From assembly GCA_903848275.1 (NCBI GenBank), contig CAINGB010000025.1, positions 4,713-68,712 of the forward strand: 64,000 bases of DNA. Direction: 5' to 3'. Both the position numbers and the translations under genes were made by a program. Below the pieces are notes generated by a model. The model saw nothing but the letters and a program-made list of their open reading frames with translations, was not told the DNA's origin and ran no database searches. This document shows positions 9,101-64,000 of the stretch, piece by piece (position 1 is the stretch's first letter; each line of letters opens with the position of its first letter). The stretch comes from Candidatus Uhrbacteria bacterium (lineage in GTDB: Bacteria > Patescibacteriota > Patescibacteriia > UBA9934).

Positions 9101-9527
9101 CCCCGCCGCTGCCGTTACCACTGCTGGTGTTGCCGCCGCCAGCGCCAGTGGCGTTAAGCAACGCGGAAAGGATGAAGCTGGCAATCGCGAAGGAGAGCAG
9201 GATGATGGCCAGGCCAATGACGCCACGAATGAGGATTTTCTTGGCGCGTTCTAATTTTTCTTCGTTGCCGGCCGCGGTCATCCAAGTAAAGCCACCGTAG
9301 AGGACGATAAGTACTGAGAGAATACCGAGAACGCCAATGACCACGCGGATGATGCGAGCGATGATGATTTTAGGGTCTTCCGCCGTGAGGCCGGAGGCAG
9401 CGCCAACGTCGGCCAGGCTACTGGTGACTTGAGCTAGGAGGTGTGGAGCGTGCAAAAATACGCCAGCCGCAATGAGGCCAAGGACAGAAGGAAGAACGTA
9501 TTTAAGGCGGAACCAACGCATAGCCAA
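120..9527 (-). CDS. Giant (3135 aa) secreted or surface-anchored multidomain protein. N-terminal TM segment plus TrbC/VirB2-like pilin-type domain, then a Gly/Ser linker, Ig/IPT-like repeats, at least 12 Myxococcus-type Cys-rich repeats and a possible vWA-like C-terminus.
   Basis: One uninterrupted 9.4 kb ORF. N-terminus: hydrophobic segment, then ...LYGGFTWMTAAGNEEKLERAKKILIRGVIGLAIILLSFAIASFIL (pilin-like amphipathic/TM helix pair). Repeats CGDGHIDTLHGEECEDGNTANADGCSSSC, CGNGHLDRAG..EDCDDGNTKNGDGCSATC and others match the C-G-D-G-x-E-x-C-D-D-G-N-x-DGC-x-C pattern. IPT-like ITGISPLSGAVGTFVTIDGVGFG. C-terminal DIYVVFVTDLTTAMSS.. segment is vWA-like. Confidence 0.85.
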   Translation of the reverse strand: MAMRWFRLKYVLPSVLGLIAAGVFLHAPHLLAQVTSSLADVGAASGLTAEDPKIIIARIIRVVIGVLGILSVLIVLYGGFTWMTAAGNEEKLERAKKILIRGVIGLAIILLSFAIASFILSALLNATGAGGGNTSSGNGSGGGFGGSSSTSAFSVTDYSPDGPVAIRNVLLKVTFSKTLDAATLANNLVVKNTASGAVIDGTITVSSNSASFRPNAACPSPNDTRFCFDADTAFSVSVSTAVKSTNGTTLVCTTTSCTSSFTTGNLVDVANPTAVITIPSGSVESGSSALVQVHATDDSQVADASFSAEDVQFDSVGATGPDLSDTTIATNWDTTALVNSTSYKLATTVTDIAGNTSDDTIHVTARGPWCFNDVIDTSHGETGLNCGGDSANVDYCGACSGSICTSDADCGPSDSCVDGICTALPEITGISPLSGAVGTFVTIDGVGFGDTQPTVTFTAANGGTVVALSPSCSTWSSTGLIVMVPVGAVTGPITVTTGATTPLSDSSNDDYGQIFDDFVVNDVVHPKLCSLLPASGAPTDAVVLSGLDFGDAQSTSTVAFGTNAAGSYSGWSDSSLNVTAPSARDGSYPVGVTVGGVASNTILYSLATATTTVPIIASISPSSAAIGDYITLTGSNFGANIGQVFFENKTSGYKALASVDFPAACSDYWSDTQVTVIVPASYQNGNPVVAGTDFAIYLVAQSGASSALTDFTITSNAPSPGICSISPNTGAAGDTVTITGSLGSSTGAVDFFSAIPATLTSAWNSTAVTVKAPVGATSGPVQITSAAGATSNTLNFTYGAATTTTLPPGPAAYQWYFSTGKIPTTPEIVTECTLTPGGRISAVPNSTFTTDVCPQAVVYAEFTELMNRGTIDDAVKIEKCSSDACTGGTDITADGLLTISDSSPTTFTWVPNTPFANAASYKVTVSTAAKSSPGGIAMAADYSWHFLVSSTGASCAVNNVSVSPATATIDAQGNTDTFNALPSDGCVVLDASKYTYNWTVDPSIAGLASSDACASGNSYCTLVQANAEGTTDVTAQEQASNVDGNAVLTINFTDPYVADFWPSCDGACRNSLIGASFNTDMDAATLVAPGAVKLYACPNELCNVGVGDEVRAYSVSASNCASDASTHCKQADIALPSGTNLTPGTFYRVVISGDVATPSGVALTRTNYSGDYSWTFGVKSGTDVCAVSRLAVTPDAATASTVGERQNFAVSAYGVPDACSTSGQLLATTGYNWSFHNWTDNGHSSTINVANWLPSATIDTNKNDIAAGCTSLCTPGGSQAYAAICGDGHIDTLHGEECEDGNTANADGCSSSCLREGSNGGPTWAPVCGNGHLDRAGDGSGEDCDDGNTKNGDGCSATCLDEGSRSVDTTCGNNDIAYDPTQGGEDCDDGNVANGDGCSSLCLNEGTVSSADIGGARCGDGTITPNYETCDDGNSVSGDGCSASCLREGSAGGAFWASKCGDGATTQAATGAGEDCDGQQYCSSSCTLLGSSTSYTTPSFCGDGTVGLGEYATCESSGGDSRIDDTQLAAIDLHAAQEVDPATKLAIASMYVTEPVSGITTSATPTTYSLSCSAVSDLDCHLPLATGVGVNNCCLARPTVSLHPTGRNVCRNAELSGLFSSEMDLSTFLTAPTAPATAQPLMFAKLDLTTVPGHLCPSDHTSLAMAVSSHLPWYSRSWLNVRQLFTGRSAEAAAGDCVVPVASYSQTAIETSPDVTSYKVTMHYDVPLLANAHYTLEVMTDSDVTDASHPGVHSVDGVAMYNVHGAATQEFSTGSEICTLDSVAVTDGNTDSPNYFSQATESHDFTATAYTFNGTTSEPIESLSGVYSWNWAWTDDMNATIVTATGSTDPSATDTAAVAAVGKNGDANVLATATIDYDQFGTSEGTSIAGTQKVVAFLCENTWPDVKTTVFPWSDDASLATGAVIGSGWMNFSDFYCRDAGATTDTTDDYPALTVQNAADYSTTDNILKEYLFEVNDGSGDAIGYRVVTNSDYLSPLAWYTAQGFSGSPSVTTADGFQAVKDGRTTYIAAVNQSGATLYPNIYVISYNEGASDSTIAIYDQLLANLSFATNVSDVALCSDGSAYTTETCTADADCATGETCANNKIKLTRDVKRLADLRTISSEVSTYSSTYATSDVPTLGSGTFVRGLGASVWGSWTDLLGGALANSSLVADPLNAFLGCGTAPLASYDSATCVNQANGQYICPAGSHVYHYKAAGSASYTLYADLEYATGAWYYDYDTSATDAVTYQVSSPLSTAAGFTTAVFCDGTTIYGSTGNCGDGVVNASEVCEIGERGGTTTSCSTTTDTTVLDGTISQVCNSTCSAFIADTSATCVAATCGNGLIDAASEECDDGSLNGRYGYCGSTCKLTVDAFYCGDGSLAGSEACDCSSTSASTDSRPYGGRTDSTDGSTRYCGGSSGSGYLNGDYNSNPNNTCAWDCQGPASYCGDGVIDSGEVCDGAPDSYAGTICNNNSGTMEGQSCDPALLDADCQAGVRSARAKAQAKCGVSNETVQLHGPFTACPITTVCQLSDDATLIGQACTTDDDCGAGGTCSNNTYQTYRTRVCDDDGAHGGTCNWADASTGYEGITCKALNNCGDGVVDTGEECDDGNTNSGDTCTNQCKTNVCGDGYLELDTEQCDEGANNGAGCTSAYESTCTACSVSCKYTSLSGEFCGDGVANGSEYCDAYDLPNSYVPAVEAIYGSSPVTAWDSTMTSTRYTYVGTGTCTSNGQRISVDLNSDGIAAANETEVCQTVGQCNGGDSSDPIRGLSATCLSDADCSSNDCQFPVCANDCGSTCPDTFLSDAMLLTDNQPGAASSSSVDLYSYSATTTSILPNAATITFPACRLGATLTADVSLDNVASPDIYVVFVTDLTTAMSSSLDDVKADLRTAISDLFRQNDNVHIGLVYMPRSGPVATSTFYSAADESTLAGLIDLYTTTSGKPDTASGLNLAQHLLDGTSSVTSNFRKAIVLVQASRASSPSSASTNADSIKAAGYELYTIAPLPSSSSTLIRTIAGWSSNSAARFTALTSDGTIPNTTNHLDYAYNGAASTEIADAFSSIVSSFTGIVVELLTSNGATTTSTTGVVTEGTGVALPWPEGFVCDQTAEQDLPLRVTYTGVGEVNISNIKFNYCAL

Positions 9528-12528: not shown

Positions 12529-13074
12529 TTATTTAGTAGATTTTATCTTTTTGATGGCTCGCGCTACAGAAAATACAAACTCCAAATCTTTTGTTGAGTA
12601 TTCTGAGTCTATAGCAGTCAGGGTTCCTATATGTAGGCGATTTCGCAGAATTCGTACTTTGTCAACATCTTTATAAATCTGTTCGTTGATAACTGAGTGA
12701 TCCCGACAAAGAGTGTTAATATCACCTAAATTTAATTTACCTAGCTTTACATGTTCTATGCTCACTACATGAGAGCCTAAAACGATGCGATCTTGATTAT
12801 TAATTTTATAAAGTTCTCTGGAAATCTTAAAGCTTTTTGTTTCTCTAGTTAAATTTTCTTCAGAGACCATGCTCTTCAAAAACCAAACCAGTAGTGCTTC
12901 GATAATTGAAGCGGTATAAACAATAGCAGTTTTCCTAAAGCTACTTCTGAGCGAAGAGGTGTATGTTGGTAAATCTGATAGATATACTAATTCCATCAAA
13001 TGCTCAAATGCAGTGTAGATGTTTCCCCTTAGAATGTCGTCTTCAACAAAAGAAAAATTGGACATTCTAGACAT
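12529..13074 (-). CDS. Hypothetical 181-aa protein in a low-GC insert. It may be an HEPN/Abi-like nuclease (Rx6H-type motif VRILRNRLHIG); this is speculative.
   Basis: An AT-rich ORF inside a GC-rich chromosome. The only motif is R-x6-H near the C-terminus. No confident homology from sequence alone. Confidence 0.4.
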   Translation of the reverse strand: MSRMSNFSFVEDDILRGNIYTAFEHLMELVYLSDLPTYTSSLRSSFRKTAIVYTASIIEALLVWFLKSMVSEENLTRETKSFKISRELYKINNQDRIVLGSHVVSIEHVKLGKLNLGDINTLCRDHSVINEQIYKDVDKVRILRNRLHIGTLTAIDSEYSTKDLEFVFSVARAIKKIKSTK

Positions 13075-16518: not shown

Positions 16519-17136
16519 TCAAGTCCTGCGTCTTTTAGTTAGACTGATTTGGATAACGCGGCTCATCGGCCTGTAGTCTTGCTTCATGCCGACTATACAG
16601 GCTTCGATGTAAGCTCTTTGACTGCTCTTTTTCCAAGCTATTTGCTGATAACCAATGCGTGTAGCTATAACATCTAAAAATAAACGAATTGTTCGGCCGT
16701 TGCCTTCACGAAAGGGGTGAATAGCATTGAGTTCGCAATGGATGAGGGCGAGCTTGTCAGTAATCTGCTTCTTAGTGTCATCGATGGAAGGAATATTCTG
16801 CCTGAGAATGCGATCGAAATCTGCTAGAGCCGAGCCGATAAAATTAGCCGAACAGAACATGGCGTCACCCTTACTAATATTTACGGTACGAATTTTACCG
16901 GCCCAGACATAAAGAGGTTCCAGAAAATAATAGTGAATTTTTAATAAAAATGAAACATCGATAACTTTAGGAATGGCGGCATTGGGTCCTAAAAAATATT
17001 CTTTAGCATCTAAGTAAAGAATAGCCTCAGTGTTCTCGAGTTTGGCTTGGTCTTTAATACTGAGTTTATTTTTCAGAACGCCATCTTCCATGCCAGCCTC
17101 GCCGGCAGTCGAACTATACCGAGAAGGCGCGGCCAT
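16519..17136 (-). CDS. fic: Fic/Doc family protein (toxin of a class I FicTA module)
   Basis: Canonical Fic motif HPFREGNGRTIR. Confidence 0.85.
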   Translation of the reverse strand: MAAPSRYSSTAGEAGMEDGVLKNKLSIKDQAKLENTEAILYLDAKEYFLGPNAAIPKVIDVSFLLKIHYYFLEPLYVWAGKIRTVNISKGDAMFCSANFIGSALADFDRILRQNIPSIDDTKKQITDKLALIHCELNAIHPFREGNGRTIRLFLDVIATRIGYQQIAWKKSSQRAYIEACIVGMKQDYRPMSRVIQISLTKRRRT

Positions 17137-26652: not shown

Positions 26653-26738
26653 CGCTTGTGGGCGAAAGCCCCGTTCGGCCAATATCATAAGCCGAAGACA
26701 AGCGTAAAACAACCCTTTAATGGGGTGTTTTTTTGTTT
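26653..26738 (+). ncRNA. Small structured RNA, copy 2: P1 cgcttgt/acaagcg enclosing gggcGAAAgccc and ttcggcc..gccgaa hairpins, followed by a hairpin plus T7 terminator
   Basis: Perfect 7-bp P1. GNRA hairpin. The second hairpin uses the same ttcggc/gccgaa stem as copy 1. Then ccctttaatggggtgttttttt. Confidence 0.5.
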
Positions 26739-27228
26739 AAGAGTCCAATAGCCATCCTCCACCGATCCTTTTAACGGTTTTCTGACTATTCGTCTTAAGC
26801 TCCTTCCAAGCAGGAGATACACTCCAAAAATGAAAATTGCCATCCCCAACTCTGCGTACTACAACATTAATCCTACGCTTTTTGTCGAGATTAATAATAG
26901 CAGCAAAGGCATAGTAACGAACTGATTTCTCTTGCCGATGACCACTAACATCTGGCTTGCCTACCGTCTGCACAGACTCGCGATGTTCCTGAATAGTGGT
27001 AGTTTTCTTAATTATTAAAACGGCGTCTTCCAAACAGAGAAGTTTATTTTTCTGAACTACCTTAGTTCGTTCCGTTCGAGTGCCATCAAACTGCAAGTGA
27101 TGGAATCCGTCTGAGCTGAAATGTACCATTTGATTAAGAGCTGGGCAATGAACTTTGATAACTGATTTATAAAATTTCTCTGCTTTTGCAAAGATCTTTT
27201 TAAACTCAAATAAATCGCTATTACTCAT
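26737..27228 (-). CDS. Hypothetical protein (163 aa), low GC
   Basis: AT-rich ORF with no recognisable motif. Confidence 0.45.
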   Translation of the reverse strand: MSNSDLFEFKKIFAKAEKFYKSVIKVHCPALNQMVHFSSDGFHHLQFDGTRTERTKVVQKNKLLCLEDAVLIIKKTTTIQEHRESVQTVGKPDVSGHRQEKSVRYYAFAAIINLDKKRRINVVVRRVGDGNFHFWSVSPAWKELKTNSQKTVKRIGGGWLLDS

Positions 27229-30587: not shown

Positions 30588-30902
30588 CTACCTAACCGTA
30601 TCATCACAAACATACATATCCCAATCAGGGTTATATTTTCCATTTTTACAGCATTCGTAATCGTCGTCTCTTGCTCCGTTGGGGTTGTATGTGCTCTTTT
30701 CGTCGTCTATCCAAACTCTACAAGCCTCTAGTGAATCGAGCTCCCCTGAAAGTCTGTCTACGGTTAAGTTTGATGCGTCTGGATAATACATGGCTATCCA
30801 TGTATCCCTAAAAATACACCCCGACCCAAGTAGAAAAAGTGAAATACCTACAATTGTAATTTTTATAAATTTTGAGTTAATCATATCAAACAAGTAATAC
30901 AC
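30588..30902 (-). CDS. Small Cys-containing secreted or lipoprotein-like hypothetical protein (104 aa), low GC
   Basis: N-terminal hydrophobic segment ...ISLFLLGSGC. AT-rich. Confidence 0.4.
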   Translation of the reverse strand: MYYLFDMINSKFIKITIVGISLFLLGSGCIFRDTWIAMYYPDASNLTVDRLSGELDSLEACRVWIDDEKSTYNPNGARDDDYECCKNGKYNPDWDMYVCDDTVR

Positions 30903-31218
30903 TAATTTTTTTAGCTAATTTTGGGACGTCGTGCTTGGCCACATTCCAGACGGCTTCGGGGTCAACGAAGGCGTAATCGTGGATGAGAATATCGCGCAGG
31001 CCAGCCATCTGCTTCCAGGGAATTGATTTGTCCCGTTCTTTGATTTCTTCGGTAATGCGTTTAGTGGCTTCGCCGATTATTTCAAGACGTCTAATAACGG
31101 CGTCGCGGAGTTTGGGGTCACGCAAGAATTCTGCTTTTTTGATGCCCGAAATATACTCGGCTATAGCTGTAGCCGAGTCCAAAATGTGCCCAAGGTAAAT
31201 CAGTGGGTCACGAATCAT
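30886..31218 (-). CDS. hepT: HepT-like (DUF86) HEPN RNase toxin
   Basis: R-x4-H-x-Y motif RDILIHDY near the C-terminus. Confidence 0.75.
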   Translation of the reverse strand: MIRDPLIYLGHILDSATAIAEYISGIKKAEFLRDPKLRDAVIRRLEIIGEATKRITEEIKERDKSIPWKQMAGLRDILIHDYAFVDPEAVWNVAKHDVPKLAKKISVLLV

Positions 31219-39708: not shown

Positions 39709-40155
39709 TTATTTGACGTCAGACTGGAAGTCAACGCGGAGAACTTGACCGTCCACACTGACTGGAAGGTCGTCGGTAACGCTGAAGACCTGGTCGCCGT
39801 TGTCGACATGGAGGAGCGCAATGTAATCCTTGCTCGGGTCGAGCGGGGTGGTTAAGCGAACGCCAGTACCCTCATGCAAACCGTGATCCAAGAAGCCGGA
39901 GGTAGCAATAATTGGACCAGGAGCCTTGCCGATAGCCTCGTGAATAGTAATGAAACCGTCCTTAACCAGGTTGACAGTAAACATTTGCATATTGGCCCAG
40001 CTGGCACCCGGGGTGATGGCGAGGGTGGAGCCTGGAACGTCGACCGGTACATAATCTGGCTTGGCTGGCGGTGCAGCAAAGAAGAGAACGCCGAGGCCGG
40101 TGATGGCGGCGAGAATGACGACGAGGACGACGATGTCAGTTTTTTTGAAGATCAT
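39709..40155 (-). CDS. Membrane-anchored hypothetical protein (148 aa)
   Basis: N-terminal TM helix, then a soluble domain. No recognisable family. Confidence 0.5.
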   Translation of the reverse strand: MIFKKTDIVVLVVILAAITGLGVLFFAAPPAKPDYVPVDVPGSTLAITPGASWANMQMFTVNLVKDGFITIHEAIGKAPGPIIATSGFLDHGLHEGTGVRLTTPLDPSKDYIALLHVDNGDQVFSVTDDLPVSVDGQVLRVDFQSDVK

Positions 40156-40391: not shown

Positions 40392-40445
40392 GTGGGGATA
40401 AGTGGTCTACATTCAATGTATACATTGAATGTAGACCACTTATCC
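40392..40445. repeat. 50-nt perfect palindrome (25-bp arms, centre GTATAC) flanked by TTATCC(CC)AC DnaA-box-like motifs. Its right arm overlaps the stop codon of the ABC permease gene.
   Basis: ggataagtggtctacattcaatgta|tacattgaatgtagaccacttatcc. The left end reads gtggggataag (reverse complement cTTATCCCCAC). The right end reads cTTATCCACgg. Confidence 0.8.
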
Positions 40446-43689: not shown

Positions 43690-44064
43690 TTAGCTTATCC
43701 CATTGTACAACCAAATTAATAAAAATATTGATACAGACTCCTCAATAATACGTCCGAAGCAACCCACCCAGAACCACGTTTGTTGCTTTGTATTTAAATC
43801 CTTATTTTTACCTGACAGAATATAAAATGTACCAAATACTGCTCCACCCAAAGCAAATAAAGTAGTTATAATACTAAATAAACACAGCACTCCAAAACCC
43901 ACTAAAGCTACCCAACCAACCCACTGCCACCCGATTGTATTAGTAAAAAATAGCGCCACGGAGACGGCTATACCGTAGAAAATAATATTTTTAATGGCGT
44001 CTCTCCAAACTTTCCCCGCTACTAGTCTCGCCTGAACAATATCATCGTGTGTCGTTAATGCCAT
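43690..44064 (-). CDS. Hypothetical integral membrane protein (low GC). The internal Met start avoids overlap with map.
   Basis: 3-4 TM helices. AT-rich. Confidence 0.45.
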   Translation of the reverse strand: MALTTHDDIVQARLVAGKVWRDAIKNIIFYGIAVSVALFFTNTIGWQWVGWVALVGFGVLCLFSIITTLFALGGAVFGTFYILSGKNKDLNTKQQTWFWVGCFGRIIEESVSIFLLIWLYNGIS

Positions 44065-44194
44065 AATATAATAATGAGATAATATATGAATTCTCCCATG
44101 TACTCCGAGGATGCTGATGTGTTTGCTTGAGTACGCCAATCTGTTTCGTGGATAACTCCTGTAAAATTGGAATTTGGTGAGTTCGATATTTGAT

Positions 44195-44977
44195 TTAGAT
44201 ACGTACTTTCGGCTGCGGGGTGAGAATTTCGACACCAGCTTCGGTGACAGCAATGGTGACTTCGAAGTGAGCGGCGTCGGAGCCGTCCAGGGTTTTGATG
44301 GTCCAGCCGTCGTCGCCGGTGGTGACGTCGCTGTCGCCGGTGGTCAGCATTGGTTCGATGGCGAGGACCATGCCGGAGACGATTTTGACGGTTGGGAAGG
44401 CTTTGCCGGCGCGGTAGTTAGGAATGTGTGGTGGCTCGTGGACTTTGTGACCCACGCCGTGGCCGACGAGGGCGGTGACGATGCCGTAGCGGCCGTCCAC
44501 AGCGTCCTCTACAGCGTCGCCGATGTCCGCGATGTTGCCACCGAGTTTGACGGCGTCGATACCAGCGTACATGGCGTCGCGAGTGAGGCGTATGAGGGCC
44601 AGGCGTTCCTGACTGACATTGCCGACGGGGACGGTGACCGCCATGTCCGTGGCGAGATTTTCGAGCCAGAGACCAATGTCGAGGCCGACGATGTCCCCTT
44701 CTTTGAGGACTAAATTGCGGTTGCCGAGGCCGTGGACAATTTCGTCGTTAACGGAAATGCAGACGGTCGAGGGAAATGGAATAGAGCCGCCAGCTTTGTA
44801 GCCGCGGAATGAAGGCTTGCCGCCGCCCTTTTCGATAACTTCGGTCGCGATAGCATCGAGCGACCGAATAGTAACGCCCGGTTTGACGGCGTCGACTGCG
44901 GCTTGGAGGGCTTGGGAGAGTAGCAGTCCACCGCGGCGGAGGGCATCTATTTCGGTAGAGGTTTTCGTTAATGACAT
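44195..44977 (-). CDS. map: Methionine aminopeptidase type I
   Basis: Pita-bread fold motifs VHGLGN..., DIVGLDIG, HGVGHKVHEPP. Confidence 0.9.
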   Translation of the reverse strand: MSLTKTSTEIDALRRGGLLLSQALQAAVDAVKPGVTIRSLDAIATEVIEKGGGKPSFRGYKAGGSIPFPSTVCISVNDEIVHGLGNRNLVLKEGDIVGLDIGLWLENLATDMAVTVPVGNVSQERLALIRLTRDAMYAGIDAVKLGGNIADIGDAVEDAVDGRYGIVTALVGHGVGHKVHEPPHIPNYRAGKAFPTVKIVSGMVLAIEPMLTTGDSDVTTGDDGWTIKTLDGSDAAHFEVTIAVTEAGVEILTPQPKVRI

Positions 44978-56525: not shown

Positions 56526-57716
56526 TTACTCAATGATTTTGACAACCACACCAGCGCCGACGGTACGGCCACCTTCGCGGATAGCGAAGCGCATCTTGTC
56601 TTCCAAGGCAACTGGGTTGATGAGAGTTACGGTACAAGTGACGGTGTCACCTGGCATAACCATTTCGGTACCTTCTGGGAGGGTGATTTCACCAGTTACG
56701 TCCGTAGTACGGATGTAGAACTGTGGCTTGTAGCCCTTGAAGAATGGCTTGTGACGACCACCTTCTTCCTTGGTCAAAGCGATGATTTCAGCTTCGAACT
56801 TGGTGTGTGGCTTGACCGAACCTGGTTTGGCCAAAACCTGACCACGCTGCACGTCCTCCTTCTTAATACCACGGATCAAGATACCAGCATTGTCGCCAGC
56901 CATACCGGAGTCCAAGGACTTGTTAAACATTTCGATACCAGTAACGGTGGTCTTGGCGGTGTCGGTGATACCAACGATTTCTACTTCGTCACCAACCTTG
57001 ATCTGACCGCGCTCGATACGACCGGTAACAACCGTACCACGACCTTCGATAGAGAAGACGTCTTCGATTGGCATCAAGAAAGTCTTGTCGAGGTCACGAA
57101 CTGGTTCCGGAACGTAGGCATCCAAGGCATCCAAAAGGTCGCGGATTGGCTTGCTGGCAACTTCGTCAGAAGGAGCGGCCAAGGCCTTAGAGGAAGAACC
57201 GCGGATAACTGGGACGGTGTCGCCTGGGAAATCGTACTTCTTCAAAAGGTCGCGAACTTCCTGCTCGACCAAATCAATAAGTTCTGGGTCGTCAACCATG
57301 TCAACCTTGTTCAAGTAGACAACGATAGTTGGCACACCAACCTGCTTGGCCAAAAGAATGTGCTCGCGGGTCTGTGGCATTGGACCGTCAGCAGCAGAAA
57401 CAACGAGAATAGCGGCGTCCATCTGGGCAGCACCGGTGATCATGTTCTTCACATAGTCAGCGTGGCCTGGACAGTCGACGTGAGCGTAGTGACGCTTGGC
57501 AGTCTCGTATTCACAGTGGGCGGTAGAAATAGTGATACCGCGGGCCTTGGATTCAGGAGACTTGTCCAAACCATCCATGCCCTTAGTGGAGGCAGAGTTA
57601 CCCATGGCAGCTGCCACCGCAAGGATGGCCGCCGTGGTGGTGGTCTTTCCGTGGTCGACGTGACCAATGGTACCAACGTTAACGTGCGGTTTGGCTCGGG
57701 AGAACTGTTCTGCCAT
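56526..57716 (-). CDS. tuf: Elongation factor Tu
   Basis: [22 protein letters not shown]-motifs. Confidence 0.95.
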
Positions 57717-57785: not shown

Positions 57786-57814
57786 AGTATAGCAAAAGTC
57801 CTTTATTTGTGCAA
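57786..57814 (-). promoter_or_regulatory. Sigma70-like promoter for tuf (TTGCAC-17-TATACT)
   Basis: Minus strand cttgcac aaataaaggacttttgc tatact, about 75 nt upstream of the ATG. Confidence 0.55.
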
Positions 57815-57840: not shown

Positions 57841-58383
57841 CTAAAGTGGTTCGAGGTAGAACTGCTCTTCCCCGCCGTTATTTTTTGCTTGGGAAAGCGG
57901 TTGACGGGGTGTTTCGGGCGGTCGTGGTGAGGCCGGAACTGGGGTATTTACAGACTGGCGTGGCTCGGTTCGAGGCTCAGCCTGAGGAATGGGACGGGGC
58001 TCGAGGCGTGGTTCGGGCTCGTAACGAGGGCTCGGGGCGGGTTCGATGATTTCGAGGACGGGTTCGGTAGGTGCGGCCAGAAAGACTGGGTCGATCTCGA
58101 TTTCCCCTATCTCCTCCTCCCCTTCCGCCTCAAACTCGGGCTCGACCCGCTCGGCTGTCTCGGCCTGGTGGCCGTGTGGGTGGCTATGTCCGGCGTGGTC
58201 GTGCTCAGCCTCCAGCTGTTCTATCTCCTCGTCGTCCGGCCCTAGGAAGCCATTGACCAAGGCCTCGTACTGCTCAAACGGCAGAATAACCAGTGGTTCC
58301 CCACCGTGCTCGTTGGTCACAATCAGTCTGTCCCCTGTCCGCCTAGCAAACCGCAAGAGCTTCTGGAATTGATCATTAGCCAT
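57841..58383 (-). CDS. Phd/YefM-like antitoxin-domain protein fused to a long acidic Pro/Glu-rich tail with a His-rich patch. It is an orphan, with no adjacent toxin.
   Basis: N-terminus RLIVTNEHGGEPLVILPFEQYEAL resembles the YefM/Phd core. The tail is EPEPRLEPRPIPQAEPRTEPR..., with HDHAGHSHPHGH. Confidence 0.45.
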   Translation of the reverse strand: MANDQFQKLLRFARRTGDRLIVTNEHGGEPLVILPFEQYEALVNGFLGPDDEEIEQLEAEHDHAGHSHPHGHQAETAERVEPEFEAEGEEEIGEIEIDPVFLAAPTEPVLEIIEPAPSPRYEPEPRLEPRPIPQAEPRTEPRQSVNTPVPASPRPPETPRQPLSQAKNNGGEEQFYLEPL

Positions 58384-58453
58384 ATAGGGCCATCTTAGTA
58401 CTTGGGCCCGGAATGTCAAAACCGAGGCACTGAGCCCCGGTTCGGATGTTGAC

Positions 58454-59263
58454 CTAGCCTCTTGTTTCATTTGCTTTTTCTGCTGCGACTTTCTTTTCAG
58501 CTTCTTCTTGGAGCCACTCAGTTATTTGTTCTATCTCTCTTAAAGCGTTTAGTGCTTCTTCGATTTGCTCATTAAGGAAATCCCTTTCGCGTTTCAGTGC
58601 TCCCAGCCTCTTCTCAGAGGTAGATACGGTATCGGCGACTTGAGCCTTAAATGAATTAGGATCGGTATTTTCCAGCCAAAATTTATGCACAGCAGCTAGA
58701 TTTTTTTCTGCATCTATTATTTTATTGCCTATTTCTTTTGTTAAGAAAGTCGCATTCGTTTGCAAATCCTCCCAATACTTTTGCTTGTTTGCCATTTCTT
58801 TTAATGTAAGGGTGCTGTTTATTTTTTCAATCTCACCATGCATGTCGCGGTAAAAGTCATTAGGGTTGTCATGATACACATCCCTCTCTCCAGCTTTTTC
58901 TCGTTTTTCCGCTTCTTCCCTGCGTCCCTCAATGTAGGCAGCGGTCTCTATAGCATTCGTCATTTGATCTCGTAAACCCGACATTATTGGCCCATCAATA
59001 TTGCGCATGCCTTCGAGCGCTGTAACAGCTCTTTCTACTGCTTCAATTTGCCCGAGAGCACCCTTAAAACCCTCAATTGCTTTCTTTCCTTTTAATGAAT
59101 CAATAACGTTCTCGAGTTTTTTGTAATTGTCGCTTGTACTATACCTATCATGAGGCAATGTTTTAGCGAAGCGCTCGGCTGGGGAAGAAACCTTATCCGC
59201 CTCTTTGGGGACATTAATAAACTCCTTCAATCCGTCCGGTCGCGTTCTTTCTTCAACACCCAT
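58454..59263 (-). CDS. Hypothetical coiled-coil protein (269 aa), low GC. TTATCCCCAC motif lies ~65 nt upstream.
   Basis: AT-rich, charged and helical. No family recognised. Confidence 0.45.
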   Translation of the reverse strand: MGVEERTRPDGLKEFINVPKEADKVSSPAERFAKTLPHDRYSTSDNYKKLENVIDSLKGKKAIEGFKGALGQIEAVERAVTALEGMRNIDGPIMSGLRDQMTNAIETAAYIEGRREEAEKREKAGERDVYHDNPNDFYRDMHGEIEKINSTLTLKEMANKQKYWEDLQTNATFLTKEIGNKIIDAEKNLAAVHKFWLENTDPNSFKAQVADTVSTSEKRLGALKRERDFLNEQIEEALNALREIEQITEWLQEEAEKKVAAEKANETRG

Positions 59264-59344
59264 AAAATAACAAAAATAATCTTACCTGGCGTAATTTTCC
59301 CATAGAGTGCCTCCCACCTGCAAATGAGTGTGGGGATAACACGA

Positions 59345-59821
59345 TTATGTAGAGGTAGTCCTAACCCCCTCGGCGATGTGGAGAATGTGGGATTTGGGGA
59401 CGAGATAAGTTGGGTAATGCTGGCCGTCGACGAGGGCGACTTTTTGTTTGGCGAGGTGTTCTGTTTCGGCGTCGACGAGGAATTTAAGGCCGAAGAGGTT
59501 GATGCTGGCTTTGACTTGGACGTTGTGCGACCAAGAACCGATGAACTCCCAGTTATGAATAGCGCAGCGTTGAGCGTTGGTTAAAAGCCATAGAGTGCCG
59601 GTGACTTGGCTAGCTGGTTGTTTGACAATGCCATAGGAGACAAAGCTGTCGCCCCAAGCGCGACGGAGGGGACGTTGGGCTTTTTTGGGAATATCGTTCA
59701 GCTGTTGCACGCATAAGTGCCAGCCGTCGAGAGAAGCTGGTAGGTGTAGAGCGGAACGACCAGTAATAGCCTTGATCATAGCCGCGTCGCGATTGGCGCC
59801 AAAGCCGAAGTAAAGTTTCAT
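59345..59821 (-). CDS. Gamma-glutamyl cyclotransferase (AIG2/GGCT)-like protein. TTATCCCCAC motif lies ~36 nt upstream.
   Basis: N-terminus MKLYFGFGANRD resembles the YGSN motif of AIG2-like proteins. Moderate. Confidence 0.4.
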   Translation of the reverse strand: MKLYFGFGANRDAAMIKAITGRSALHLPASLDGWHLCVQQLNDIPKKAQRPLRRAWGDSFVSYGIVKQPASQVTGTLWLLTNAQRCAIHNWEFIGSWSHNVQVKASINLFGLKFLVDAETEHLAKQKVALVDGQHYPTYLVPKSHILHIAEGVRTTST

Positions 59822-59930
59822 ACAGAAGTATTGTCCCCTGCCAGAAAAAGTAAAGCAACTGGCCGTGGGGATAAAATCGAATCTGTGCTAGACTGAAAGT
59901 AGCAGTAATTCATTATTAATTAACAGCCCT

Positions 59931-60704
59931 ATGGAAAAGCGCAATAATTGGGCAGTAGTTGGAGGAGTTGTGGTAATAGCAGCGGTGATTGTCGCGATCG
60001 TGCTATTGACGAGAACACCATTAGAACCAGATGGCAAAGGTGACCAGCCGACGAACGTGGTTGACGACACTACAACTGGCGGAGTTGTGAAGGATGATCA
60101 GAAGCCCGTGGTTACAGGAACGGTCTACGAAAACTCGAAGTTCAGTATTGCTATACCAAAAGGTTGGACGGCTAGTGAGGCGATAATCAATATCGACAGT
60201 AAATCAGACGGTGCGACCACGGAATTGAACCCAGCGGCGGTAAATATTACCAATGGCAAATGGATTCTCTACGTCAACGTCGACGCCAACCAGGCTAGCG
60301 GTGTGCCCGGTGGACGATTCGCGGAAATTGGCATGGGTGCGCCGAGTGTGGATGCTGTAGTATTAGTCGAACCAGGCGAATGCGGACGCTCGACTGGCCC
60401 TGAAGGCACGCCAGCGTTTGCGAATTATAGCCGGATTGATGATTTCATTTCAGTAGCTGATGCCACGACTGGCTGTGCCACGCCAACTGACGGGCAGGAT
60501 CACTGGTTCTTCTCGTATTTGACGAGTCCGGGTAATGGCTTCTTTAACGACTACGTACTCGGACAAAACCCAGGCTTAGTGGTAACGATGGCTTATAACG
60601 AAAAGGTGGTGAATAAACTCCCAATTTGGAACAGCGACTCGCTAACTAAAGCACTGAATGACATGACGAGTATCGCGAGTACGTTGAAGATTAAGAATCG
60701 CTAG
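59931..60704 (+). CDS. Hypothetical membrane-anchored exported protein (257 aa)
   Basis: N-terminal TM/signal anchor AVVGGVVVIAAVIVAIVLL, then a Gly/Thr-rich domain. Confidence 0.5.
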   Translation: MEKRNNWAVVGGVVVIAAVIVAIVLLTRTPLEPDGKGDQPTNVVDDTTTGGVVKDDQKPVVTGTVYENSKFSIAIPKGWTASEAIINIDSKSDGATTELNPAAVNITNGKWILYVNVDANQASGVPGGRFAEIGMGAPSVDAVVLVEPGECGRSTGPEGTPAFANYSRIDDFISVADATTGCATPTDGQDHWFFSYLTSPGNGFFNDYVLGQNPGLVVTMAYNEKVVNKLPIWNSDSLTKALNDMTSIASTLKIKNR

Positions 60705-60715
60705 GAGCTTTCGTA

Positions 60716-60800
60716 AAAAATAACTCCCGGAGGGCTTGCCACGTCAGTCGCGACTGACGTGGCTTGCACGCCTCCGGGAGATGTTTTTTTATTTAAGCGG
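60716..60800. terminator. Bidirectional intrinsic terminator: nested perfect palindrome (gccacgtcagtcg|cgactgacgtggc inside ctcccggagg/cctccgggag), flanked by A6 and T7
   Basis: aaaaaataactcccggagggcttgccacgtcagtcgcgactgacgtggcttgcacgcctccgggagatgtttttttattt, between convergent genes. Confidence 0.7.
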
Positions 60801-61239
60801 CGATGGATCGTTCGGCGGCGGCGAGGGCTTTAGCCTGTTGGTCTGGTGTGCGGTGTTGGGCAGCGAAGGTGTCGGAAGCAATGACGTCTGAGGCGGCGTC
60901 GTTCTGCTTGCTGGCCATGCGGATAGCCGAGAGGATGAGGTCGAGTTCTGGGAGTTGGAGTTGATTGGCGAACTTTTTAACGCGGGCGATGGCTTGCGAC
61001 ATGTCGTGCAGTGAAGAGCTGTCCAAGTGTCGGCCGTCGGCAAAGGCGGCGAAGATTGGTTGTAAACTCTGAAGCTCGGCGCTGGCTGACTCGTTGGTGG
61101 TTTGTTCGATGATATTAGGAATGATGTTGGTGGCAATATTGCTGGCGTGTTCGGCGATGGTGCGCAAACGTTCGTGACGGGCAGGGTCGGGCTGTTCTGG
61201 CTGTTCGGATGAATGCATCATATGGATAGAGTTTAGCAC
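60793..61239 (-). CDS. Hypothetical protein (148 aa)
   Basis: ORF only. Last gene of a four-gene minus-strand cluster. Confidence 0.4.
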   Translation of the reverse strand: MLNSIHMMHSSEQPEQPDPARHERLRTIAEHASNIATNIIPNIIEQTTNESASAELQSLQPIFAAFADGRHLDSSSLHDMSQAIARVKKFANQLQLPELDLILSAIRMASKQNDAASDVIASDTFAAQHRTPDQQAKALAAAERSIAA

Positions 61240-61562
61240 TAAACTACGATGTCGTTAATTGCTTCGAGTCGACGAGGATAACTGGCCGAAGGAGAGGCAT
61301 CGACAAGACTTAACGAAAATATATCTACGTCTTGGCCACCCTCGGTAAGTGTGGCGACTGTATTTGTAATAGTGAGGCTGGTGTGAGCCAGGTCATCACA
61401 TGTCCAATGGATACAGTTTTTGTTGGCGTCGACGTCTTCTTCCACAACTGTTTGCCGCAGGACCTTGTTCAAGCCGTTAATTTTAATAATGCAGCCGGCG
61501 CGAAGTGAACGAAATTTCTCCCAATCGGCGGCAGTAATGGGTAGGATAGAAATAGTAGACAT
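61239..61562 (-). CDS. Hypothetical protein (107 aa)
   Basis: ORF only. Stop/start junction with the downstream gene. Confidence 0.4.
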   Translation of the reverse strand: MSTISILPITAADWEKFRSLRAGCIIKINGLNKVLRQTVVEEDVDANKNCIHWTCDDLAHTSLTITNTVATLTEGGQDVDIFSLSLVDASPSASYPRRLEAINDIVV

Positions 61563-61564
61563 AC

Positions 61565-61855
61565 CTATTTAGTAAAGGCGAACGAAGTGATATCGGCAAA
61601 TTTACCACTGCCTTGGCGTGAGCTATCACTGAACTCTTTTTTCTTCAGCTCTCCGTTACGGAGAAGTAAAAGGTAATTTCTATACCCTACGTCCATGTAG
61701 CGATATGGAAGTAGAAAATTCTCGGCTGGTTCGTCGACGATCAGTAGGCTGGTAATAATTTCTGGTGCGCTATCAACCAAAATTATGTCGCCAATGCGGA
61801 GGTTGAAGAATTTGATTTGTGAGAGTTCGCTTAAGGGGAAAGGTTTACTAATCAT
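61565..61855 (-). CDS. Hypothetical protein (96 aa)
   Basis: ORF only. Confidence 0.4.
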   Translation of the reverse strand: MISKPFPLSELSQIKFFNLRIGDIILVDSAPEIITSLLIVDEPAENFLLPYRYMDVGYRNYLLLLRNGELKKKEFSDSSRQGSGKFADITSFAFTK

Positions 61856-61952
61856 AAAAAAATTACTATTAATACCATGCTATCACGTCGGTGCAAACGA
61901 AAACACCACCCACGACGTGCGAGCGGTGTTGTTCTGTTAGCTGACCAATCAA

Positions 61953-63149
61953 TTAAGATGCGTACTCTTTGATACCTGGCTTTCCCGCCAGCTCATCAAG
62001 CGCGTACCCCATTTCGCAGGCAACGCTCCCCCAGTCTGCTAGTTGCTTGAATTCGATATTTGGGAATAGTTCATGCACCATCGTTTCGAATTTTTCACTA
62101 GCGCCACCGGATGTTGAGGTATGATCTTTCAACCATTGTTCAACCAACTCTTTATTGTGCTGCATGCCAATCGATAGTTCAAGAGCCTCGGTATCATAAT
62201 CTTTAGAGTCAGTTTCTTCTCGATCATAAGGGCTCCTTACCATTCTCTTTAATCTCTCTGCATGCCGTACTGCTCTCGGTTCAACCCATGCTCGCCATTC
62301 CGTTACACCTTGCCAAAATTGAGTAAGCGTTTGCTCATTGTCTTCTAATAATTTCGCGATTTCAGGAAAATCTTTAGCGGTGAGCTCCATAACTTTCATG
62401 AACGGTTGCAGTATTCGCCAGGCGCGTCGGATAAAATCTTTTCTTGGCGAGCCCGATTGTTGCCACTCCTCAAAAATGTTGCTCACGAAGTCCGAAGCCA
62501 TTTTTTCGACTTCTTCATTAGTGAGAATGCCTCGTTCTACAAAAAGACTTTGGACATCTTTAACCCTGGTTGCATCGACAAAACCTAGACTCATCTTGAA
62601 AGAATCGAGCATGGATCTCTCGGCAATATGTTTCAGTTCAGGATGTTGTGACAAAACCTCGATCATGAACGGACTGGTGGGGCTAAGACCCGAAAATGCT
62701 AATTCCCTTGCATTAGAAGTATTTTTTTCTATCCAGCTAGATACGAAGCCGCCTGCCTCTTCAGCAAGTTCAACAGCAAGAATAGTACTAACATTCGTCG
62801 CGTCCAATAACGAATTGATAACTTTATCTCCGGATTGTAAAGCTTTAATTATTCGGGTTTTTACCGCCTCATAAACTTCTGGATCATTTTTCATGAGTCT
62901 GTCGATCATGATGCAATAAATGTACGGCATTTCAGAAGCCTGGTTGACGGCCTGAAGGACAACTCTTTTAGCTGCCGCAAAAACTTCTGGATCCTGCAGA
63001 ACTCCGAGACTGCCGTCGGCTGCAGGCCACATGTCTCTCGAAATAGTCTCATTATCCTCCGAGGATATAGCAGCAATGAGTCTTTGTCGCTTTTGCTCGG
63101 GATTTTGTTCGAGCTTGAATCCTGGCTCACCTTTAGAAATTTCAGCCAT
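61953..63149 (-). CDS. Hypothetical alpha-helical protein (398 aa), low GC. First gene of the cluster. TTATCCCCAC motif and a C10 tract lie upstream.
   Basis: AT-rich ORF. TATAAT at about -20. Motif at 63215-63224. C10 homopolymer at 63196-63205. Confidence 0.45.
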   Translation of the reverse strand: MAEISKGEPGFKLEQNPEQKRQRLIAAISSEDNETISRDMWPAADGSLGVLQDPEVFAAAKRVVLQAVNQASEMPYIYCIMIDRLMKNDPEVYEAVKTRIIKALQSGDKVINSLLDATNVSTILAVELAEEAGGFVSSWIEKNTSNARELAFSGLSPTSPFMIEVLSQHPELKHIAERSMLDSFKMSLGFVDATRVKDVQSLFVERGILTNEEVEKMASDFVSNIFEEWQQSGSPRKDFIRRAWRILQPFMKVMELTAKDFPEIAKLLEDNEQTLTQFWQGVTEWRAWVEPRAVRHAERLKRMVRSPYDREETDSKDYDTEALELSIGMQHNKELVEQWLKDHTSTSGGASEKFETMVHELFPNIEFKQLADWGSVACEMGYALDELAGKPGIKEYAS

Positions 63150-63239
63150 ACTAATTAAAATAATTATAACTCACACAAGTTTCTCATAAAGTCACCCCCC
63201 CCCCGCAAATGAACGTGGGGATAAGATTATCTGCAAAAA

Positions 63240-63283
63240 CAAAACGCCCCGGACGCTTGCACGTGTCCAGGGCGTATTTGTTT
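63240..63283 (-). terminator. Intrinsic terminator of fusA (hairpin acgccctggacacgtgcaagcgtccggggcgt plus U-tract)
   Basis: Minus strand aaacaaatacgccctggacacgtgcaagcgtccggggcgttttgtttttg. Confidence 0.6.
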
Positions 63284-64000
63284 TTAGCGAGCGGAGCGCT
63301 TTTTGATGATGTCTTCCGCGATGTTACGTGGGACTTCCTGGTACTCGTGGAATTCCATGGAGTAACTAGCGCGACCTTGGGTCATGGAGCGCAAAGCGGT
63401 GGAATAGCCGAACATTTCGGCGAGAGGGACAAGAGCGCGGACGAACTTGATGTTACCGCGGTCGCCCATTTCCTGGATTTGACCACGCTTGGCGTTAAGG
63501 TCGCCGACGACGGTACCCATGAAGTCTTCTGGGGTGACGGCTTCGACCTTCATGATAGGTTCGAGAATGACTGGCTTAGCTTTGCGGACAGCGTCCTGGA
63601 AAGCCATGGAACCAGCGATTTTAAAGGCTGATTCGTTACTGTCGACGTCGTGATAGGAACCATCGAAGACAGTGGCCTTGATGTTGATGAGCTGGTAACC
63701 AGCCAAGACACCGCGATCCATAGCTTCCTTAGCACCTTTACCGATTGGCGCGATGTACTCCTTTGGCACGGAACCGCCCTTGGTTTCGTCGGCAAAGACG
63801 AAGTTCTCGCCTTCTGGGTCGATGAAAGGTTCAACACGGAGACAAGCGTGACCGTACTGACCGCGACCACCGGACTGTTTGACGTACTTACCTTCACCTT
63901 CGGCACTCTCGCGAATGGTTTCGCGGTAGCTGACCTGTGGGTTACCGACATTGACCTCCACACCGTATTCACGCTTCATGCGGTCGACCATGATTTCCAA
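63284..64000 (-). CDS. fusA: Elongation factor G, C-terminal part (gene continues beyond the window end)
   Basis: EF-G domains III-V: ...VSYRETI..., [16 protein letters not shown]. Confidence 0.9.

Follow-up and report, generated by a model that had tools for sequence, protein, structure and literature searches.

The stretch of DNA analysed here (contig CAINGB010000025.1, 64,000 nt, henceforth the window, to which all coordinates refer unless a relative is named) contains eight open reading frames (ORFs) between fusA and tuf, the genes encoding EF-G and EF-Tu. Only the 3' part of fusA is present, at 63284-64000 on the minus strand, where the end of the window cuts the gene, and tuf lies at 56526-57716 on the same strand, followed by rpsJ and the S10 operon. 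We numbered the eight ORFs of the interval from tuf toward fusA. Starting from the fusA side, they are P8 (398 residues, 61953-63149), P7 (96 residues, 61565-61855, of putative coding status), P6 (107 residues, 61239-61562), P5 (about 142 residues, 60793-61221, within a listed ORF of 60793-61239), P4 (257 residues, 59931-60704), P3 (158 residues, 59345-59821), P2 (269 residues, 58454-59263) and P1 (180 residues, 57841-58383, within a listed ORF of 57841-58470); P4 is on the plus strand and all others are on the minus strand. The original prediction, that the interval is one acquired, AT-rich module splitting the str operon, was right about the eight ORFs and about the disruption of the normal adjacency of fusA and tuf: the gap between the two genes is 24-185 bp in the loci examined from outside the candidate phyla radiation (CPR, or Patescibacteria), 439-3573 bp in seven of the nine CPR loci with both genes and 954 bp in L073, an unclassified locus. 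Its account of the interval as a single module did not hold, since P1, P3, P4 and P5 are kept in place in relatives and have host-like GC content at third codon positions (GC3).

Judged by its elongation factors, the window reads as part of an Uhrbacteria-like CPR genome. Its EF-Tu is 98.5-99% identical to that of contigs labelled Candidatus Uhrbacteria, among them L082 and L101, and 79% identical to that of a Magasanikiibacteriota metagenome-assembled genome (MAG) among the GTDB species representatives, while its EF-G is 97.5-98% identical to the EF-G of L082 and L085. We read the gene order from fusA to tuf in the relatives at this EF-Tu identity of 98.5-99%, namely L082 with L083 and L084, L085, L098 with L099 and L100, and L101. 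In L082-L084, fusA is followed by a343, which encodes a protein with a PRTase domain, and then by homologs of P5 (67% identical), P4 (72%, on the opposite strand) and P3 (88%), the gene a361, a homolog of P1 (80%) and tuf. The order in L085 is fusA, P5 (84%), P4 (75%), P3 (90%), b197, P1 (83%) and tuf, and that in L098-L100 is fusA, P5 (70%), P4 (67%), P3 (90%), c332, P1 (92%) and tuf. L101 has a P2-type gene (71%), P4 (57%), a c332-type gene, P3 (82%), P1 (61%) and tuf; no P5 is visible there, the contig being cut just upstream. A further contig, that of P0127, carries a P4-like gene, P3 (67%), a Bestrophin-like gene, a TrwB/DUF87 ATPase gene, two small genes, a 156-residue gene at the position of P1 and tuf. 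All close relatives examined thus keep P1, P3 and P4 in place, and L082, L085 and L098-L100 keep P5 as well. The site directly after fusA in L082 (5938-6969 of that contig) is where a343 lies; its PRTase domain has a Pfam E value of 1.2e-5 and the protein has a weak match to the ShosT system in PADLOC (E 5.6e-4).

Base composition was judged against 44 core genes of the window (GC3 mean 0.61, standard deviation 0.06). P2 (0.37), P8 (0.41), P6 and P7 (both 0.46) deviate strongly from this reference (z = -2.5 to -4.0). P1 (0.63), P3 (0.59) and P5 (0.64) lie at most 0.6 standard deviations from the core mean, and P4 (0.52) has a z of -1.5. The mean GC of the interval is indeed below that of its flanks, and the claim that the interval is AT-richer than they are stands for P2, P6, P7 and P8 (GC3 0.37-0.46) but not for P1, P3, P4 and P5 (0.52-0.64); the deviant composition is confined to the former and does not extend across the whole interval. 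The same holds in the relatives, where homologs of P5, P4, P3 and P1 have a GC3 of 0.52-0.61 and the intervening genes one of 0.31-0.40, and genes of the variable kind described below range from 0.31 to 0.46 across window and relatives together. Because comparable low-GC3 genes are dispersed elsewhere in the window, we regard low GC as a mark of this genome's accessory gene class and not of the interval. A low-GC HepT-like RNase gene (30886-31218, minus strand, E 1e-29) and several ORFans with a GC3 of 0.30-0.39 (12529-13074, 26737-27228, 30588-30902 and 43690-44253) stand among core genes.

A single event in which the whole 5.5 kb was horizontally acquired as one module, splitting the str operon, is a very remote prospect in light of these comparisons. 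The lower mean GC, the short fusA-tuf gaps outside the CPR and the lack of any significant Pfam or NCBIfam match among the eight interval proteins all speak for such an island. Against it, relatives carry P1, P3, P4 and P5 with core-like composition, P3, P4 and P5 sit in place there, P1 is a CPR-wide gene fixed beside tuf, and only P8 to P6 and P2 are without counterparts in L098. Nor did the interval show the usual marks of a mobile element: no integrase or transposase domain was found among the eight proteins with Pfam, NCBIfam and PHROGs, no tRNA gene lies within 25 kb, and a repeat search of the interval returned only internal leaders and hairpins and no direct repeats of the kind that flank mobile elements. 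The interval proteins gave only marginal matches in PHROGs and PADLOC, scans of viral contigs with P8 and P2 found no relative, and a metagenome scan with P8 found none; since these scans were empty or marginal, there is no evidence of a phage or defence origin. We conclude that the single acquired island is largely refuted, in that it fails for half of the genes. The interval is instead probably a region of three layers, consisting of P1, of the trio P5-P4-P3 and of the cassettes P8, P7-P6 and P2.

The first layer, P1, had been described as an orphan YefM-like protein, which was not borne out: it belongs to a family of 643 CPR proteins encoded directly upstream of tuf. This family was collected with a profile built from six proteins at a cut-off of E <= 1e-3, and all names given to its members are those of Patescibacteria/CPR lineages or unclassified 'bacterium'; a Pfam domain is recorded for just one of 120 listed members. 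Small ORFs directly upstream of tuf in other CPR loci share the motif L-x-LAKKTGDRLIV...VIM-x-L-DEYE-x-L with P1. A database protein identical to P1 (P0003, 100%) begins at Met30 of the listed ORF (58383), and P1 is therefore taken as 57841-58383, without overlap with P2. When a 57-member hidden Markov model (HMM) of the family was run on all ORFs of 105 fetched loci, 17 loci had a P1-family ORF and the other 88, including every non-CPR locus, had none. The homolog lies 112-262 bp upstream of tuf and on the same strand in 11 of the 11 loci that contain the tuf start; in the remaining six a downstream gene, 123-125 bp away, is cut by the contig end after about 92 codons, and we take it to be tuf. 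Two distant members on long contigs (L104 and L105) show the order rpsL-rpsG-fusA-P1-tuf-rpsJ. In L001, a Magasanikiibacteriota MAG, P1-tuf comes directly after a complete 16S rRNA gene (3939-5442 of that contig, Rfam 1426 bits), itself preceded by trmD, and no fusA is present within 5.6 kb upstream; this arrangement indicates that P1 remains beside tuf even without fusA as a neighbour.

P1 has an acidic, proline-rich disordered region with an isoelectric point (pI) of 4.5, close to the family median of 4.4. It ends in the motif FYLEPL, with the family pattern [FY][LYE]E[EDGP][PIVL] found in 51 of 57 members, and the family also has a W-x-IP motif. The best-conserved motif of the middle part, INRDIAxW (LTEDELLDKINRDIAIW), is present in 54 of 57 members and lost in the clade of the window, where P1 has a histidine-rich stretch, EHDHAGHSHPHGH, in its place at residues ~50-75. 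The distribution and gene order suggest that P1 has accompanied tuf since ancient times in many CPR lineages and has been passed on vertically, with rpsL-rpsG-fusA-P1-tuf-rpsJ as the probable ancestral order. Because the gene is fixed between those for EF-G and EF-Tu in many Patescibacteria, we regard P1 as a candidate lineage-specific translation-associated factor. That so many of these bacteria should carry an extra gene for an uncharacterised, acidic, disordered protein at this very place is a point of interest in itself.

The resemblance of P1 to the Phd/YefM family (PF02604) bears on a further explanation, that of an anti-phage defence islet or toxin-antitoxin islet in which P1 would be the antitoxin and its neighbours toxins or defence effectors. 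YefM has a helix-strand-strand-helix core to which the first ~45 residues of P1 bear a resemblance (for example at DRLIVTNEHGGEPLVILPFEQYEAL), and the C-terminal part of P1 is disordered and carries short conserved motifs, as in antitoxins. P1 itself scores 21.7 bits against PF02604, below the gathering cut-off of 29.8, and 13.3 bits against TIGR01552, below the cut-off of 20.8; 29 of 57 family members match PF02604 at E <= 0.01, the best with an E value of 1.5e-5. Structure gave no confirmation of the fold, and 'YefM-like' is thus a weak resemblance only: the AlphaFold2 (AF2) model of P1 has a mean predicted local distance difference test score (pLDDT) of 62, this low-confidence model gave no Foldseek match with E < 2, and hhalign against E. 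coli YefM gave a probability of 25% over 24 columns. A search of PDB sequence profiles with the family returned no matches. Unlike YefM, P1 seems to be without a counterpart of the first strand, as far as can be judged by eye from two sequences, and its INRDIAxW, W-x-IP and aromatic-acidic C-terminal motifs are not antitoxin features. It also differs from an antitoxin in having no toxin partner; the gene after it is tuf in all 11 loci that reach it, as in L104 and L105, and never a toxin.

Other points in favour of a defence or toxin-antitoxin islet are the weak ShosT match of the PRTase-domain protein after fusA in L082, the TrwB/DUF87 ATPase gene before the P1 position in the P0127 contig, and low-GC Fic and HepT genes elsewhere in the window. 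However, Pfam and PADLOC found no toxin family among the interval proteins, and PADLOC was empty for all eight apart from a marginal match of P8 (E 0.004). A toxin-antitoxin pair is also a poor fit because P1 is conserved across the CPR while its upstream neighbours vary, and we consider this explanation highly improbable. The Fic gene encodes a Fic/DOC family protein (16519-17136, minus strand, Pfam E 6.9e-16, GC3 0.42). Doc-type Fic toxins target EF-Tu and are neutralised by Phd; the presence of this gene in the same window as a Phd-like gene adjoining tuf is a curiosity only.

The second layer is the trio P5-P4-P3. P3 is 82-90% identical at the same place in L082, L085, L098 and L101, P4 is 57-75% identical in the same four and keeps its opposite strand, and P5 is 67-84% identical at the same position in L082, L085 and L098. 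More distant homologs of P3 (45-54% identity) occur in unrelated genomic contexts. As the close relatives keep the trio in place while the distant P3 homologs sit elsewhere, we infer that it was inserted at the fusA/P1 junction in the ancestor of a narrow clade and was passed on vertically from then on. P5 is predicted to be a small cytoplasmic protein. Its start was placed at the ATG at 61221 on the strength of its homologs and of shared upstream sequence, no homologs were detectable outside the clade, and its C-terminal ~50 residues recur at the C-terminus of the PRTase-domain protein a343. P4 has an N-terminal membrane anchor and an extracytoplasmic domain. The domain belongs to a family of 157 cluster representatives, some of which are fused to ice-binding-like, PG_binding_1 (peptidoglycan-binding), PsbP-like or Kre9 Ig-like domains, and these fusions point to a role of P4 at the cell surface.

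The statement that none of the encoded proteins has a recognisable function was accordingly too strong, given this surface-protein domain family for P4 and the gamma-glutamyl cyclotransferase (GGCT) fold of P3, which confirmed the GGCT-like label that P3 had received. The AF2 model of P3, built on an alignment of 20 family members, has a pLDDT of 93.5 and a predicted template modelling (TM) score (pTM) of 0.87. Its top Foldseek matches are human GGCT structures (3cry, 2rbh and 2i5t; E 4e-6, TM 0.62-0.64), followed by Arabidopsis AIG2-like proteins, ChaC2 and GGACT, with an overall range of E 4e-6 to 4e-3 and TM ~0.5-0.64; 20 of the 21 top PDB matches are named as GGCT-family or AIG2-like, the other being B. 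subtilis YkqA. In sequence, by contrast with other members of the GGCT/GGACT/AIG2-like/ChaC group, the identity of P3 to these structures is 10-18% and no family HMM matches: P3 had no Pfam or NCBIfam match at E <= 1 and no PDB sequence-profile match at E <= 10. The P3 family is also tiny, with 20 proteins restricted to Uhrbacteria-like CPR bacteria. Its N-terminal loop, Y4-F-G-F-G8-A9-N10 (YFGFGAN), in which Y4, G8, A9 and N10 are invariant in the 20 sequences, would correspond, by sequence position, to the YGSN(L)-type substrate loop, and has alanine for serine. The catalytic glutamate is E98 in human GGCT and E82 in GGACT; E92, the sole invariant acidic residue of the 20 P3 sequences, is a candidate for this role. 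P3 is thus predicted, from its model, to be a GGCT-fold enzyme, and a CPR-restricted family of GGCT-like enzymes can now be annotated at the level of the fold.

Two side observations concern P3. On L086, a contig identical to the window over this part, the public gene call is an 86-residue antisense ORF (1213-1473 of that contig) in place of P3, and the GGCT-fold gene is missing from that annotation for this reason. In two different contexts, L102 (8001-9909 of that contig) and the P0127 contig, a distant P3 homolog is followed by a gene for a Bestrophin-like (PF14023) protein, which hints at a functional pairing that is not present in the window.

The third layer comprises P8, P7-P6 and P2. 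The original view of accessory content applies to these genes, about half of the interval, which are missing, replaced or relocated in close relatives, and not to the rest. A blastn comparison of the window with its closest relative, L098, gave colinear blocks at 64000-63267 (94%), 61240-60835, 60703-59261 and 58442-56401 (93%). The gap at 63266-61241 corresponds to P8, P7 and P6 and sits between the fusA terminator and the sequence AGTGCTAAACTCTATCCAT-ATG, which is conserved before P5 in relatives; homology to the relatives resumes at the P6 stop codon. The gap at 59260-58443 corresponds to the coding sequence of P2 alone, and L098 has an unrelated gene of 332 residues, c332, there instead. 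At this site homology extends across the upstream leader as far as the start codon and resumes at a CCGRGGC-N5-GCCTCGG-TTTT hairpin. Depending on the genome, the site between P3 and P1 holds P2, a361 or c332 (336 and 332 residues) or b197 (197 residues); L101 has no gene there, and the P0127 contig has four. Remote homology among these genes (P2, c332/a361 and b197) found no support, with hhalign probabilities of 0.1% for P2 against c332 and 2.4%. In L101 the P2-type gene (71% identical) and the c332-type gene stand at other positions, each behind a leader.

P2 encodes a helical acidic protein. P8 has a single homolog in 5.8 billion proteins, P0001 (39% identity), whose gene adjoins adk in another organism (L081); it was not found in the fusA-tuf interval of any relative, and apart from the marginal PADLOC match it had no family match in Pfam, NCBIfam, PHROGs or PADLOC. 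P7 and P6 are ORFans, and P7 had no homolog in any fetched locus. The 'four-gene cluster' next to fusA is a composite of P8, with its own leader and terminator, of P7-P6, with a separate promoter-like site, and of the conserved P5. In another CPR genome (L005, 2726-5519 of that contig) two type-IV-pilin-like genes, with the prepilin N-termini FTLVELL and FTLIELL, lie between fusA and the P1 homolog, at the same fusA/P1 junction as the genes of the window.

We also weighed an assembly or binning artefact, in which a chimera would have put foreign DNA between fusA and tuf. The window does derive from an uncultured lineage, and neither its P8 nor its EF-Tu has an exact match among the proteins recorded in the assembly collection. 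However, two independent assemblies, L086 (ENA) and L087 (Logan), match at 100% identity from P4 through P3, P2 and P1 into the start of tuf, which excludes an artefact for the part from P4 to tuf; P8 to P6 lie outside that overlap. The same architecture recurs in at least five other genomes and the L098 blocks are colinear, and for the interval as a whole an artefact is scarcely credible.

The cassettes of the third layer share an upstream sequence, of which the original prediction had noticed two elements correctly, a repeated TTATCC motif and a C10 tract. The exact box TTATCCCCAC occurs four times in the window, each time between genes, on the minus strand and ahead of a gene on that strand; three copies are in the interval (59330, 59865 and 63215), before P2, P3 and P8. 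The looser form TTATCCNNAC has five matches in the window, against 1.2 expected by shuffling. The C10 tract (63195-63204) reads as G10 on the coding strand, upstream of P8. The leader of P8 (63150-63228, minus strand, with repeats D1 and D4) consists of the TTATCCCCAC box (63215-63224), TTTGC, this G10 tract, TATGAGAAA and TATAAT 13 nt before the ATG. The leader of P2 (59264-59342, minus strand) has the box at 59330-59339, TTTGC, an interrupted G-rich run, TATGGGAAAA and TAAGAT 15 nt before the ATG. Seven leaders from five genomes align over ~80 nt, and they precede four unrelated gene types, namely P8, P2-type genes (two), c332-type genes (three) and b197. Their common elements are TTATCC(C/A)CA, TTTGC, a G-rich tract, TATGRGAAAATT and a -10-like hexamer 13-17 nt before the ATG. 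The box upstream of P3 (59865-59874, minus strand) is followed by a promoter-like site, TTGCTT-N17-GACAAT, 8 nt before the ATG, and is kept in L082, L085, L098 and L101. RNA structure in the P3 leader was considered and rejected (RNAalifold -3.3 kcal/mol with one covarying pair; nothing in Rfam at E <= 1 bar a spurious IsrM fragment). A leader DNA pattern of ~31 bits gave 82 single matches in viral contigs, about chance level by a rough estimate.

The G-tract raises the possibility of a phase-variable contingency locus, in which slippage in the leaders would switch the strain-specific genes and TTATCC(C/A)CA would be the site of a regulator, possibly DnaA. A homopolymer of at least seven is present in the 5' region of P8 (G10) and of four other genes (G7-G10): the tracts are G10 in the window P8 leader and in L085, G9 and G8 in L101 and G7 in L082, and they are interrupted in the window P2 leader and in L098. 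The tract thus varies in length and sits in the conserved upstream region of variable genes, as it does in promoter homopolymer phase variation of Neisseria porA/opc and Bordetella fim, in which such tracts lie upstream of variable genes. In L101 (three copies) and L085 the box equals TTATCCACA, which we take to be the E. coli DnaA-box consensus. However, the G7 tract is the same in L082, L083 and L084, two of the seven leaders here have an interrupted tract, unlike the Neisseria and Bordetella systems, and the length differences are between genomes and not within a population. We found no paper on phase variation in Patescibacteria in the literature. The GC skew is positive across all 64 kb without inflection; as it shows no replication origin in the window, the boxes are not part of oriC, and an oriC/DnaA-box cluster was rejected. 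Taken together, a phase-variable contingency locus is decidedly unlikely. At 40392-40440 (minus strand), the fourth exact TTATCCCCAC copy follows immediately on a perfect palindrome whose arms are 19 bp long (GTGGTCTACATTCAATGTA/TACATTGAATGTAGACCAC), upstream of a 65-residue ORF and a gene for a DUF7282 membrane protein (39709-40155); the other elements of the cassette leader are absent from this place.

Promoter- and terminator-like signals between the genes, another feature claimed for the interval, are present as sequence patterns and are conserved in relatives. A hairpin with a T-run directly follows fusA (63242-63258, minus strand) and has equivalents in L082, L085 and L098. After P8 there is a terminator-like hairpin (61902-61930, minus strand) and then a promoter-like site for P7, TTGCAC-N17-TATTAA. 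Nested inverted repeats (I1 and I3, 60715-60789) between the convergent P5 and P4 are predicted to be a likely bidirectional terminator. Upstream of P1, the hairpin CCGGGGC-N5-GCCTCGG-TTTT overlaps the promoter-like TTGACA-N16-TAAGAT (58392-58440, minus strand), which ends 9 nt before the P1 ATG; the arrangement is kept in L082, L085, L098 and L101. The tuf promoter-like site, TTGCAC-N17-TATACT with a TG before it (57786-57813, minus strand), is nearly identical in the same four relatives. The str operon thus appears transcriptionally modular, with a terminator after fusA and promoter-like sites for P1 and tuf, which would account for the tolerance of insertions between fusA and P1.

We return to the three-layered region and propose how it may have arisen. 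P1 would be the ancient companion of tuf and P5-P4-P3 the clade-specific insertion, followed by autonomous cassettes (P8; P7-P6; P2), each with a promoter-bearing leader at one end and a hairpin terminator at the other. The repeated ~80-nt leaders and similar hairpins would provide portable homology, through which recombination could swap, delete or relocate whole coding sequences between strains, and the modular transcription provided by the fusA terminator and the promoter-like sites of P1 and tuf would let the junction absorb this gene traffic. Gene content, synteny, composition, the breaks in homology, the shared leader and the fold of P3 are observed; the activity of promoters and terminators and the mechanism of recombination are proposed. 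Several points weigh against this proposal. Promoters and terminators were called as consensus matches at the level of patterns, the leaders have a good -10-like hexamer but no canonical -35, and terminator-like sites number seven against 10.1 in shuffled sequence, fewer than expected by chance. Recombination via the leaders is deduced from breakpoints and positions. The persistently low GC3 of the cassettes could reflect weak selection and fast evolution and not foreign origin; c332-type genes hold a GC3 of 0.32-0.36 at 50-62% identity. P6 and P7, which are without any homologs, may not be real genes, and the age of the P5-P4-P3 layer is only roughly bounded by about five distinct relatives.

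Known systems offer partial parallels. Replacement-type flexible regions, such as capsule or O-antigen loci and integration hotspots, are flanked by core genes, and the fusA-tuf region is like them in its conserved flanks, its strain-specific deviant content and its exchange of whole genes with breakpoints in conserved sequence. In contrast to them, it is very small, with single-gene cassettes, and lies inside the str operon; its homology comes from the repeated ~80-nt leader and terminator hairpins instead of flanking genes; and in L101 cassettes of the same types are found at other places in the interval. Integron cassettes are likewise single-gene units inserted, lost and reordered at a fixed locus, but they are usually promoterless, whereas the cassettes here carry their own promoter-like leader, have no attC-like imperfect inverted repeat after the genes and are accompanied by no integrase in the interval.

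What we found is genuine but of an ordinary kind: strain-specific genes in a flexible region. Less ordinary are the CPR-wide P1 gene between EF-G and EF-Tu and a miniature system of shared-leader cassettes inside the str operon. The striking point is no longer foreign DNA that splits a conserved operon; it is that the fusA/P1 junction of this Uhrbacteria clade would be a miniature flexible region exchanging single-gene cassettes with a common leader, and as such a compact model for strain-specific gene turnover in tiny CPR genomes, with no obvious mobile-element machinery here. A literature search on the str operon in the CPR and on fusA/tuf synteny found nothing relevant. Established knowledge is not overturned, and the functions of all proteins are predicted. 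A bolder joint reading, on balance unlikely, would make P1 a CPR-specific translation partner, whose acidic-aromatic C-terminal tail might dock on EF-Tu, EF-G or the ribosome as the tails of the archaeal P-stalk and SSB do, or an autoregulator of the tuf-S10 unit acting via its Phd/YefM-like domain; the upstream cassettes would at the same time be a poly-G phase-variable, recombination-shuffled, strain-specific set. If true, this would be the first contingency system described in an episymbiotic CPR bacterium.

Elsewhere in the window, the first 9.4 kb are spanned by a single ORF of 3135 residues (120-9527, minus strand).

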